DNA of 46,425 nt, from the IMG/VR virus record IMGVR_UViG_2511231131_000010; one strand, 5' to 3'. The stretch is from a virus (taxonomy: Duplodnaviria; Heunggongvirae; Uroviricota; Caudoviricetes). Shown in pieces: positions 36,001 through 46,425 of the stretch (its first letter is position 1; every line of letters starts with the position of its first letter). The position numbers were made by a program.

Positions 36001-39000
36001 AGTTACGTATTTAACCGGGCTACCTTTCATTGAGATGGTTTCACACATCTCTGCCGCTTTCAGTTCCGCTGTTTTTCTGGATTTATAGCGACGGTGCCAG
36101 ACAGATACATCCGTGCGAACTGATACATCGTTTCTGTATTCCGTAGTGGAGATGATGATTTCGTAACTAATCATGGGCGAACCTCCTTGTCAGAACCATT
36201 CAGCCTGGAATCAACAAGTGCAGCGCCAAAAACAGCATCACCAACACGGTCGTACAGTTTGCTAGCCAGCGGAGATTCAACGGCCTTAAGCATTGGATAA
36301 AGCTGGCTTGTCCAGATTTGATGGATTTCACGCAAATGCAGGTATACGCCTCTGGCGTTTCGTGCGACAGCTGACATATCAACCGCGTCAGCACCAGATA
36401 AATTCTTCTCCATCTGGTTAAAGGCGTTGATGTATGCCTCTTTGAACCGGGCTGCACGTTTGCCAGTAAAGCCCATAGCAAGGAACGCGAAGCCATCGCG
36501 GGTGATTTGATAGCAAGGTAGTTTGCGGCCTGTGCAATCGGTGTAATCACTGGGCTGAAAATTCAGCTCAGTGAATTCAACAGAGCACTCAAGCGTCTGG
36601 ATTTTTTGAATAACGTTTTTGTGCTGCTTGCAGAAATATTCGGCAACGGCCAAAGAAGAGGTAACAGCCTTCCCATGGATAACATCAATTTTAGAGTGAG
36701 TTTGGGTAGGGGTGGTTGCCATAGTGACATCCTCATGTGCGAATTTTGAAAACTCACCACATGGGACGCCAATCACAGAGGTGGTGAGACGTACAGGGTT
36801 GGCGTAACCGGTCGCACATGACCCCGGCGCATCTTTCGATGCCCCTGCACGCCCCACCATAATTTGGATGTGAGGAAACGTGCGCAAAAAAACCGCTGAA
36901 GCGCGGTTATGCGCATGTGCGAATTTCAGGACGCCAATCCCGGCACCCGCTTTATAAGGTGCGGAGACAGTGTAACGTCCCGAAATTGCAGAATCAATAT
37001 TTGGTCTTGAAATGATCATATAGCTGCTGATATCTTTAGAACTGTTCTTGGATGTTTCGGAGCCGTTTTATGCGAAACAGCTCCCCGTTATTGATGTTGA
37101 GTGAGCCGGGTTACTCCCGGCTTTTTTTCATCGCTGCCAACCAATAACCTGAAATAACCCCATTTTCGGGTGATACCAGCGAGTCCCTCGCGGTTCTGCT
37201 TCCTCCATAACCCGATAAAAAGCAGCCATAAACGGTTCCACAGCAACAATTGCGCGACGTGACAACAATCCGTCCGGCGTCATGAACTCATGTGTGTCTG
37301 TAGGAATTTGATAGGCGTTCACCAGATTGCGGCATTTATCATCTGACAAACCGGTTTTTGCTTTCAGTTGGCGATATCCGGCATAGCCCTCACGAATAGT
37401 GCCCTTTTTAATTTGCTCGACTGTTTCAGCAACGTGGCTGACTTTTTCTTCCACCTGAGTGATCCGTTTCTGTTGGCGAACGGCTTCAAGAGCCATCGCG
37501 GCAACCATTTCGATTTCGCTCATTGGCTTACGGATCTGTTCTTCCAGTTCGCGCCAGCGATCTACCAGGCGAGCTGTGAATTCAGGACAGAGCTGTGCGA
37601 CGACAATGATGCTGTCGCGCTTACCTCGTTCACCTTCGAATACATACGCGCTAGAAAATCGGCGAGGCCCAAGTGATTGTTTATTCTCAATTTCCACAGT
37701 CTGTGGAAATTGGATGATTCCCTTTTTAGCCAGTGTTTCAATAGTTCTCTTAACACTATCTGGTCGGCTTCCCACCAGCTCTGCGATCTCAACGCTGGTC
37801 ATGGATGCTTTGCCGTTAAAAATTGCGGTGTTCATTGTTTATCTCCTGCGTGTATTCCATCCGCTCTGTGTGGTGAACTTGGATTTAGGCTTTTGCGTAA
37901 CAAGTTAGGAATTCCATCTTCAGGGTGAGGATAAAGATCTGGCCTTAAGCCATGAGGCGTAACCTTCCATGCAACTACTTCACATACTCGTAAAACGAAA
38001 CGAGCAGGAATTGTGCTTTTTGAAAACCACTGATTCACCGCTTGCGGCGTCACACCAAGATTTCGCGCTATGGCATTTTGCGCAATTAATGCACGAAGTT
38101 TGTCGTAATCATTTCCTTCCATAACAAAGCACCAATATTAACTTTATAAATCAAGAATACATCAAGTTTAAATTAACATGCAAGTTACAAAAGGATCGAA
38201 TACACTAAAATCAAGTAAAGATTTATCCTTGTAAAGAAACCCACAGGATTTGGTCATGAAGAACGTCAAAAACACGGAAAATCGAATAGCCGCGATGCTG
38301 AAAGCAAAAGGATGGACTCAGGCTCAACTGGCCCGCAAGTTAGGTGTGAGTGCGCAATCAGTGCAGTACTGGACAACAGGAAAAACATTTCCACGGAGTG
38401 ATAAGCTCGCGCATTTATCAGAGATTAGCGGTTATCCACAATCCTGGTTCTTAGGTGAAGACTCCTCACCAACCTTTTCCTCGCAAGAGAAACACCAGAC
38501 AAGAACAGATAGCGTCGTATTTAATGTCCTTGATGTTGAGTTTAGTTGCGGTGATGGAACTCATGTCCGTGGTGACTTGATAGATGTAGTGCGCTCAATA
38601 GAACTTGATCCTGAATATGCCCGACGTCTTGTTGGAAATCGGGCATTCAAAAATATAGAAATAGGTAACGCCAGAGGAGACAGTATGGCTCCCACAATCT
38701 CACCTGGCGACCTTCTTTTTCTTGATAAGACAGTAACTTATTTTGATGGCGATGGTATTTATGCATTTTGTTTTGATGGAGAATGCTACGTGAAAAGGCT
38801 TCAAAAAATTGGAAGCAAAATCATGGTGTTATCTGATAACCCCAATTATCAACCATGGAGTATCGAAAAAGAGGGGTTAGCTCTGCTTTATATCCAGTCT
38901 AAAGTGATCTCATCAGTACCATTCAACATAAACAGATTTGGTTAGTCTTTGATTTTAACGGGCTTTGCCCGTTTTTTTTCTGCCTGAAATATACGATATC

Positions 39001-45000: not shown

Positions 45001-46425
45001 GGTGATCCGGGGCACTACAGTGAATGCCTGTACAACATCGAAGAAATTATGCGATGGATCGAAAACCAGAAACAACCAGGTGCCAAAAATGCAAGTTCCG
45101 GTTAACCTGTTAATGCTCCTGGACGTCTGGGAGGTTTAATGAGTAACGCATCATACCCGACAGGCGTTGAAAACCATGGAGGATCACTCCGTATATGGTT
45201 TCACTATAATGGCAAACGTGTCAGAGAAAACCTCGGTGTTCCTGACACAGCCAAAAACCGGAAGATCGCTGGTGAACTTCGCACTTCCGTTTGTTTTGCA
45301 ATCAGAATGGGGAGTTTCGACTACGCCGCGCAGTTCCCTAATTCCCCTAACCTGAAACACTTTGGTCTGGGAAAAAGAGAGATAACCGTTAAGGCACTTT
45401 CGGAAAAATGGTTGGACCTTAAGAAAATTGAGATTTGTGCGAATGCACTTAATCGTTACCAGTCAGTAATTAAAAACATGTTGCCTATGTTGGGTGAGAA
45501 AAAACTGGTTTCATCCATAACAAAAGAGGATTTACTTTTCGCAAGGAGAGATTTGTTGACCGGTTACCAAAAGCTTTCTAATGGAAAGATTTCTTCCATA
45601 AAAGGGCGCTCAGTGGTCACAGTAAACTACTATATGACAACCATAGCTGGAATGTTTCAATTTGCAACAGATAATGGTTATACCTCAGGAAACCCATTTA
45701 ACGGTCTGGCACCCTTAAAAAAGTCCAAGGTAAAACCAGATCCTCTCACCCGTGACGAATTTATTCGTTTTATTGAAGCTTGCCGTCATCAACAAACAAA
45801 AAACCTGTGGATTCTCGCTGTATACACGGGTATTCGTCACGGGGAGCTGGTATCGCTGGCATGGGAAGATATAGATCTTAAAGCAAGGACTATAACCATC
45901 CGTAGGAATTATACAAAACTTGGCGAATTCACTCCACCAAAAACCGATGCTGGCACCGGAAGGACAATTCATCTGGTTCAACCAGCTATTGATGCTCTTA
46001 AAAGTCAGGCGGAAATGACCATGCTTGGAAAGCAACATTCTGTAGAGGTAAAGCAGAGGGAATATGGGAGAAGTACTGTGCATAAATGCACTTTTGTTTT
46101 TAGTCCTCAGGTAATAAAACAGCGGCAGTTTTCCGGACCGCACTATAAGGTTGACTCCATCAGGGAGTCATGGACAAGTATCTTAAAACGCGCAGGTCTG
46201 AGACACAGAAAATCGTACCAATCCAGGCATACTTATGCATGCTGGTCACTTGCCGCTGGAGCTAATCCTAGTTTTATCGCAAGCCAGATGGGCCACACAA
46301 ACGCACAAATGGTATTCAATGTTTACGGAGCATGGATGAAAGACAACAATCACGAACAGATAGAACTCCTTAACAAAAGACTATCTGAAAGTGTCCCATG
46401 TATGCCCCATAAGAAAGCTGGGTAA

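Follow-up and report, generated by a model that had tools for sequence, protein, structure and literature searches.

The DNA analysed here, a stretch of 46,425 nucleotides (nt) recorded in IMG/VR as IMGVR_UViG_2511231131_000010 and hereafter called the window, is a lambdoid prophage whose map is reversed relative to the usual lambda orientation. The present work focuses on its early-left operon, the interval 38946-45105 extending from the end of the repressor gene cI through the excisionase gene xis. An earlier note on this sequence had proposed that the phage must use another early antitermination and recombination strategy, unless these functions are carried by unrecognised proteins. According to our analyses, this interval probably corresponds to the pL operon of a lambdoid prophage of the phiP27 type, belonging to the “no Rec module - high Chi” class, with a left arm read without antitermination and recombination entrusted to the host RecBCD enzyme. 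A layout devoid of N and of recombination genes is already described and is not new. The window provides a further clean case of a lambdoid phage, endowed with a different set of genes, that outsources recombination to RecBCD and Chi, and a small new observation, namely that the N-less pL operon of the phiP27 group is without intrinsic terminators, apart from weak hits in two relatives of Shiga toxin (Stx) phage type. The “missing N” may mean that there is no early-left antitermination here, which is not so in the N-less phage LLS. As this arm is common to Stx1a, Stx2a and Stx2e phages, the results are also relevant to Stx-phage biology.

The absence of the classical lambda early functions was supported by profile and by similarity searches. 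Profile searches of the open reading frames (ORFs) of the operon gave no match to N, Gam, Bet, Exo, Kil, cIII, Erf or RecT in Pfam, PHROGs, NCBIfam or PADLOC. The whole window was also searched in six frames by tblastn with lambda N, cIII, Kil, Gam, Bet, Exo, Ral, SieB and cII, with P22 24, C3, Kil, Arf, Erf, Abc1, Abc2, 17, SieB and C1, and with HK97 N and HK022 Nun; Ea22 was the sole match (E 1.7e-23), all others having E values of at least 0.1. The left operon contains no homologues of the components of the Lambda Red, RecET and Erf/Abc modules (Exo/RecE, Bet/RecT/Erf/Sak, Gam/Abc2). None of its proteins has an Arg-rich N-terminus, and the first product, where an N/nut system would have a small, basic, Arg-rich protein, is an acidic helix-turn-helix (HTH) protein with an isoelectric point of 4.8. 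The earlier note had recognised neither N, Gam/Bet/Exo, Kil and cIII, nor any Arg-rich N-like protein or recombination module, and had asked whether homology searches would assign N, exo/bet or erf/recT functions to ORFs of the interval; its observations are upheld, and no such assignment was obtained.

The “no Rec module - high Chi” class represents 22% of lambdoid phages (Zheng, Casjens, Davidson, Amundsen & Smith 2025, PMC12315714). It is defined by the absence of a Rec module and by Chi sites clustered toward the right end, of which the active strand carries at least 8 and the opposite one no more than 6, isolated nucleases not being counted as a Rec module; the growth of phage LLS was shown in the same study to be enhanced by RecBCD (PMC12315714). 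A statistical link had been established earlier for the Rec- Inh- class by Bobay et al. 2013 (PMC3784561). The lambdoid organisation of the window is complete (int-xis, left operon, cI/cro, replication, Q, lysis, head, tail), and its left operon contains no annealing protein, Rec nuclease, single-stranded DNA-binding protein (SSB) or RecBCD inhibitor. The Chi octamer (GCTGGTGG) occurs 13 times in the window for 1.83 +/- 1.13 expected, a number reached in 0 of 100 shuffles. Ten copies are on the late-gene (-) strand (23428, 23914, 29485, 29801, 31358, 31629, 31981, 34772, 37772 and 44724) and three on the + strand (28670, 31229 and 35906). The ten active-strand copies are all located between the lysis genes and int, none being found in the approximately 22 kb of head and tail genes, and Chi is among the three commonest octamers of the late-gene strand. 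Their orientation is that read by RecBCD entering from the right cos end, and they cluster toward the right end of the virion map, as inferred from gene order, the cos site itself not being mapped in the window. Relatives sharing the same arm display comparable counts by strand (11/3, 12/5 and 16/3), and P22 has 0/0. Gene content and Chi counts thereby assign the prophage to this class. Its only recognisable recombination enzyme is the Holliday-junction resolvase RusA, encoded in the nin region (30500-30859, - strand; Pfam RusA, E 5e-15). A DUF968 protein with an HNH-like motif, of the YdfU type, is encoded beside it (30872-31867, - strand) and is a second nuclease-type gene located outside the left operon.

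Three operon genes of unknown function, referred to as g5, g11 and g12 in a numbering that starts at the promoter, could in principle form a recombination module too divergent to be recognised, comprising an annealing protein, an exonuclease or a RecBCD inhibitor. This alternative receives some credit from g11 (43097-43612, + strand), whose 171-amino-acid (aa) product has a PD-(D/E)xK nuclease fold with a restriction-endonuclease-like alpha/beta core and the motif D40 ... E53-x-K55; these three residues and also D27 and E37 do not vary among 27 homologues, the most distant of which have 59% identity. Moreover, the unannotated g5 and g12 products are close in size to annealing proteins. Nevertheless, we regard the alternative as unlikely. 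The nearest structure to g11 is an uncharacterised protein and not lambda Exo or RecE, no sequence match in Pfam, NCBIfam, PADLOC or PDB places it in a curated nuclease family, and searches of PDB with the g5 and g12 sequences were similarly negative. The g11 gene is absent from ASU11 and phiP27 and is annotated as frameshifted in the 99%-identical prophage of Escherichia coli SCU-105 (L012 5649-5827), which, from this comparison of sequences, makes it dispensable for prophage maintenance; by fold and motif, g11 is a putative solitary nuclease without partner Rec genes. Neither g5 nor g11 is present in every relative, and no gene of unknown function is common to all of them, the same argument having been made for the class as a whole (PMC12315714). 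Phages that leave RecBCD uninhibited are, moreover, characterised by a high Chi content. The largest orphan of the operon, g5 (40523-41104, + strand; 193 aa), belongs to a family restricted to Escherichia and has a confidently predicted fold (predicted local distance difference test score, pLDDT, 88; predicted template modelling score, pTM, 0.84) with no meaningful relative in PDB or BFVD. An annealing protein, an exonuclease and Gam were each considered for g5 and rejected, the model being unlike any of these folds. The suggestion that the missing functions reside in unrecognised proteins accordingly finds no support. The widespread, unannotated PD-(D/E)xK-fold family of g11 and the orphan fold of g5 are rather candidates for accessory or anti-defence functions.

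Transcription of the arm was examined from its promoter onwards. Downstream of cI, a 7-bp GC-rich stem followed by T8 (38957-38981, + strand) forms the intrinsic terminator of the cI transcript, which is the sole strong + strand terminator detected between cI and the end of the window. It is followed by a candidate pL promoter of the strong, near-consensus sigma-70 type (39010-39038, + strand), composed of TTGACA (39010) and TAATAT (39033) separated by 17 nt, with 10 of 12 consensus matches. Two operator-like 17-bp elements of the form ATCAA-N7-TTGA stand on either side of it, a near-palindrome overlapping the -35 hexamer (ATCAATTTTTTCTTGAC, 38998-39014) and a palindrome at the transcription start (ATCAATTATAACTTGAT, 39045-39061); inspection of the gap between cI and cro revealed three further copies of the half-site ATCAAG. 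The promoter and both palindromes are conserved in the same-immunity phage PPyecE_EH1910, and we take them as candidate pL and oL.

No compact intrinsic terminator was found between this promoter and the end of int. A terminator-prediction tool applied to the + strand from 39045 to 46425 returned only weak 5-6-bp hairpins inside coding sequence, and the same tool detected, in the sense orientation of the lambda pL operon, seven 8-9-bp hairpins followed by T tails. A loose scan relying on delta-G only was not discriminating, as it retained long imperfect hairpins in all genomes, and was replaced by a compact-hairpin scan. With the latter, the left operons of the window, PhiR49_2, phiP27 and ASU11 gave no hit and those of Stx1a_14040 and PPyecE one weak hit each, for 8 hits in lambda, 3 in P22, 3 in HK97 and 9 in a partial locus of HK022; triplet-shuffled versions of each sequence averaged 0.2-0.9 hits. 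Leftward early transcription would therefore be N-independent by construction, N being probably not needed on the left.

The opposite possibility is that an unrecognised early antitermination or anti-Rho device replaces N, in the form of a protein (e.g. g1, g13 or g14) or of a cis-acting RNA unrelated to the put sites of HK022. In its favour, g1 takes the place of N in the gene order and is retained in phages of different immunity types, a put-like mechanism has been proposed for the N-less LLS by Zheng et al. (PMC12315714), Rho-dependent sites may be present, and the right operon contains a terminator associated with the isrK RNA. We hold this to be improbable, since g1 is an acidic DNA-binding protein of the XRE HTH type without an Arg-rich motif, and since the left arm presents no strong terminator for such a device to act on. 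RNA signals were not revealed either. Matches resembling boxA number 23 in the window for 27 expected by chance, none of them in the pL or pR leader, and no boxA/boxB nut site was found downstream of pL, in agreement with the earlier note, or of cro. For put, the putL and putR sites of HK022 were located by inverted similarity and used together to build a covariance model, which recovers both HK022 sites at 70 and 95 bits; its best match in the window (17 bits, E 0.06) is antisense in tail gene J. Rfam at a permissive threshold over 27000-46425 assigned no family to the left operon, and the folding of the pL leader, only about 47 nt long, and of the untranslated stretches of the operon was no better than that of shuffles (z from -0.1 to +1.0). 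The search for put-like structures that had been recommended thus disclosed no put-like or unusually stable RNA in the operon. Of the alternative strategies anticipated in the earlier note, the one concerning recombination is borne out, with RecBCD, Chi and RusA, and the one concerning antitermination is less favoured, the left arm rather appearing to have no need of it.

According to the proposed scheme, RNA polymerase would, after loss of the repressor, read from pL to int without processive antitermination, and close translational coupling would limit the access of Rho. Concatemer formation and recombination-dependent replication would be left to host RecBCD/RecA, loaded at Chi, and RusA would resolve the junctions. 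The operon itself would encode regulators (the XRE HTH and MarR-like proteins) and dispensable accessory genes (Ea22, the DUF proteins, the solitary PD-(D/E)xK-fold protein and an opposite-strand gene), the late genes staying under the control of a Q-type antiterminator.

Several observations weigh against this interpretation. Regarding Chi, a third-order Markov expectation raises the expected - strand count to 5.1, and the overall density of one site per 3.6 kb exceeds only slightly the average of one per 4.6 kb given for the E. coli chromosome (PMC12315714), so that part of the excess could reflect the amelioration of a resident prophage; contrary to amelioration alone, relatives derived from virions show the same bias. 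Regarding transcription, Rho-dependent terminators are not predictable, and the operon includes three untranslated stretches of 78-128 nt and a frameshifted Ea22 gene; transcription of the opposite-strand gene at 39528-39788, convergent with that of the operon, could interfere with pL transcripts. The early-right operon holds the isrK intrinsic terminator (36891-36908), in the path of pR transcription, so that some read-through device may still be required by the phage taken as a whole. Finally, the compact-hairpin scan detected six terminator-like hairpins in the left operon of LLS (L011 5383-10359, - strand), a phage equally lacking N, and “N-less means terminator-free” is therefore not a general rule. 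N-less lambdoids may be of two kinds, either terminator-free or provided with terminators, for which a put-like device might be required; little literature on them was found beyond PMC12315714.

The arm could also be thought of as what decay has left of a defective prophage, N and Red having been lost by deletion. One Ea22 gene is indeed frameshifted, g12 ends in a truncated DUF551 domain, and the exact arrangement is rare, only 7 of 5426 complete E. coli genomes having at least 80% of the interval in one place. Decay is nevertheless no better than a very remote prospect, as the same organisation is present in the Stx2e phage phiP27 (AJ298298), for which cos and att are annotated, in the mitomycin-induced Stx2 phage ASU11 and in phage PhiR49_2, and as the promoter, the operators, the coupling and all other ORFs are intact, the modules for replication, Q, lysis, head and tail being complete in the rest of the window. 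The same arm also occurs in Stx1a phages (LC5678xx series) and in PPyecE_EH1910; in phiP27, ASU11 and PhiR49_2, it belongs to phages recovered as virions or by induction. Pieces of the interval are found in 3266 of the 5426 genomes. The interval combines very common parts into a mosaic, the organisation of which is not a decay product.

In the relatives, the order is int, xis, small genes, L08, the opposite-strand gene, the L10-type HTH gene, cI, cro and the Roi-like gene. PhiR49_2 is 99% identical to the window over two-thirds of the interval, and phiP27 and its relatives share the gene order, the Chi bias and 83-99% DNA identity over large parts. They differ from the window in that phiP27 and ASU11 lack the two Ea22 genes, g11 and g12 that form the middle part of its mosaic, and in that stx is absent from the window in the segment separating the tRNAs from nanS. 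With the class of LLS, the window shares the lambdoid order, the Chi pattern and a left operon with neither an N homologue nor any annealing protein, exonuclease, SSB or RecBCD inhibitor. The content of this operon is, however, unrelated to that of LLS and ST64B, without yfdP, yfdQ and yfbR; LLS moreover lacks the RusA resolvase and the DnaC- and DnaB-type replication genes of the window, and has six left-operon hairpins where the window has none. Compared with the lambda pL operon (N, ral, ea10, cIII, kil, gam, bet, exo, ea22, xis, int), the position and direction relative to cI, an operator-controlled pL, an Ea22 homologue and the distal xis and int are conserved, whereas N, nutL, terminators, cIII, kil and Red are missing and the first gene encodes an HTH protein. 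HK022 is likewise devoid of N but has put RNA, which the window lacks.

Between 39092 and 44832, 15 ORFs of the + strand give a coding density of 93.8%, with Shine-Dalgarno motifs for most of them. The remaining junctions, apart from four-base ATGA/GTGA overlaps at 42107, 42610 and 43609 and the untranslated stretches mentioned above, are overlaps of 11, 14 and 47 nt or gaps of 1-10 nt. As the ORFs 41925-42110 and 42107-42613 constitute one split Ea22 gene, the corrected count between cI and xis is 14 + strand genes plus one real - strand gene, and the apparent ATGA coupling at 42107 is artefactual. The translational coupling and good ribosome-binding sites described in the earlier note hold at 42610 and 43609 and for most genes. 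The inventory of Ea22-like, DUF4222-like and unknown ORFs given there was incomplete, as it omitted the XRE HTH, MarR-like, DUF4752 and PD-(D/E)xK-fold proteins, the DUF551 fragment, the frameshift in Ea22 and the opposite-strand gene. Apart from the families named below, the operon genes belong to PHROG families of unknown function.

The first gene, g1 (39092-39640, + strand), encodes the acidic 182-aa XRE-type HTH protein, of the phiP27 L10 type (Pfam HTH_3, E 3e-10; phrog_4836), with a P22 C2-type HTH match in PDB and only generic HTH matches in PADLOC. Homologues occupy the same position in phiP27, ASU11, Stx1a_14040 and PPyecE; an HTH gene is always the first after cI, and some of these first-gene homologues have a second HTH domain. 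The 86-aa gene of the opposite strand (39528-39788, - strand; phrog_6104, E 1e-49) is convergent with g1 and divergent from g2. Comparison with ASU11 yields 16, 12 and 36 substitutions at codon positions 1, 2 and 3, respectively, a pattern that indicates that it is genuinely coding; it has a GGAG Shine-Dalgarno motif and an upstream TATAAT sequence. Its location near the promoter-proximal end recalls that of sieB in lambda and P22. The following gene, g2 (39769-40134, + strand), encodes a 121-aa protein of the phiP27 L08 type (phrog_5451), the C-terminal residues 69-115 of which are paralogous to residues 24-70 of g1 (43% identity, E 9e-10 by BLASTP). Together with the opposite-strand gene that they flank, g1 and g2 may constitute one functional module. 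A related proposal is that phiP27-type phages replaced the N/cII/cIII circuit with an undescribed one, either an early switch made of these three genes or an isrK/C4-controlled terminator gating the delayed-early genes, the left operon having been purged of terminators in both cases; it is conceivable, and we consider it doubtful.

The next genes, all on the + strand, are g3 (40213-40326), a 37-aa ORF with a strong AGGAGG Shine-Dalgarno motif, annotated in PhiR49_2 and Stx1a phages and without a family match in PHROGs, and g4 (40329-40517), encoding a 62-aa acidic protein (phrog_340). Beyond g5, g6 (41115-41363) encodes a MarR-like winged-helix protein (phrog_1687, E 1e-24), its Pfam MarR_2/HTH_24 matches being under the curated cut-offs; the ORF opens at 41073, and the start at 41115 was inferred from the annotation of homologues. 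It is followed by g7 (41353-41670), a DUF4752 protein with a hydrophobic N-terminal segment (Pfam, E 7e-37), and by g8 (41624-41938), a 104-aa acidic protein (phrog_3126).

The disrupted Ea22-family gene, g9 (41925-42613, + strand), reads as ORFs of 61 and 168 aa that carry separately the N- and C-terminal parts of the Pfam Ead_Ea22 domain. By comparison with the intact 687-nt gene of SCU-105, the frameshift is due to a 2-bp insertion at 42051-42052; it could not be located by alignment to PhiR49_2, the genes diverging after 80 nt. The second Ea22-family gene, g10 (42610-43095, + strand), is intact (Pfam Ead_Ea22, E 4e-31) and is the one matched by lambda Ea22 in tblastn. The starts of the two genes (41900-41940 and 42585-42625) are near-identical, AAAGGAGGC(T/A)(G/A)CCAGTGAGC...TACCAGGCACTGCG, and encode MS(K/E)I(D/N)YQALRE. 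Homology with PhiR49_2 stops about 80 nt into the Ea22 gene, and this conserved 5' end looks, from the alignments, like a recombination joint for mosaic exchange.

Downstream of g11, g12 (43609-44367, + strand) encodes a mosaic protein of 252 aa, at the C-terminal end of which stand the first 16 residues of a DUF551 domain. The last genes of the operon encode small basic proteins, a DUF4222 protein for g13 (44452-44694, + strand; Pfam, E 1e-13), whose ORF opens at 44416 and whose start is that of the Prokaryotic Genome Annotation Pipeline (PGAP) in SCU-105, and a 44-aa protein for g14 (44698-44832, + strand; phrog_3871). They precede xis (44851-45105, + strand), of the DUF1233/XisR type according to Pfam and PHROGs matches, and the tyrosine integrase gene of the IntR type (45139-46425, + strand; Pfam), the last gene of the leftward transcription unit, the end of which is the end of the window. 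In SCU-105, the 99%-identical prophage adjoins mlrA.

On the other side of the immunity region, the cI gene (38250-38945, + strand), coding for HTH and S24 peptidase domains, faces a cro gene of the YdaS family (37832-38122, - strand). The tblastn searches found no cII/C1 homologue anywhere in the window, and a 235-aa Roi/Ant-like DNA-binding protein instead follows cro; the route to establishing lysogeny therefore also differs from that of lambda. Further along, the isrK (62 bits) and C4 antisense (75 bits) RNAs, both over the Rfam gathering scores, are located at 36777-36962 on the - strand, just upstream of an antirepressor gene of the Rha/Ant type. This arrangement in the early-right operon resembles the P1 immI and Gifsy-1 IsrK-AnrP modules. 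As the 282-aa ORF 36171-37019 overlaps both RNAs, the true start of the antirepressor is probably the ATG near 36720. On the + strand at 37007-37130, a site resembling a promoter (TTGAAA, 18 nt, TATCTT with an upstream TG) precedes by about 65 nt a strong terminator with a T run (37103-37123), which leads us to predict a short RNA (37040-37130) that would be antisense to the Roi-like gene at its 3' end. No Rfam family corresponds to this predicted RNA, which recalls the OOP RNA of lambda.

The tail, head and lysis genes extend from position 1 to about 25000 on the - strand. They are followed, up to about 35500, by nanS, the STnc100 RNA, three tRNAs, a methylase, a Q-type gene, RusA, the DUF968/HNH gene, DnaB-like and DnaC-like genes and O, and beyond by the isrK/C4 RNA and antirepressor module, the Roi-like gene and cro. 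The region around 27531-28320 displays a backbone of the Stx-phage type (methylase, three tRNAs, STnc100 RNA and nanS). Since no stx genes were found between the tRNAs and nanS, the prophage is a stx-negative relative of Stx1a and Stx2a phages. The Q-type late antiterminator (DUF1133/Phage_antitermQ; 29949-30503, - strand) has strong terminators downstream of its gene at 28006-27989, 27784-27765 and 25315-25289, and late control is therefore conventional.

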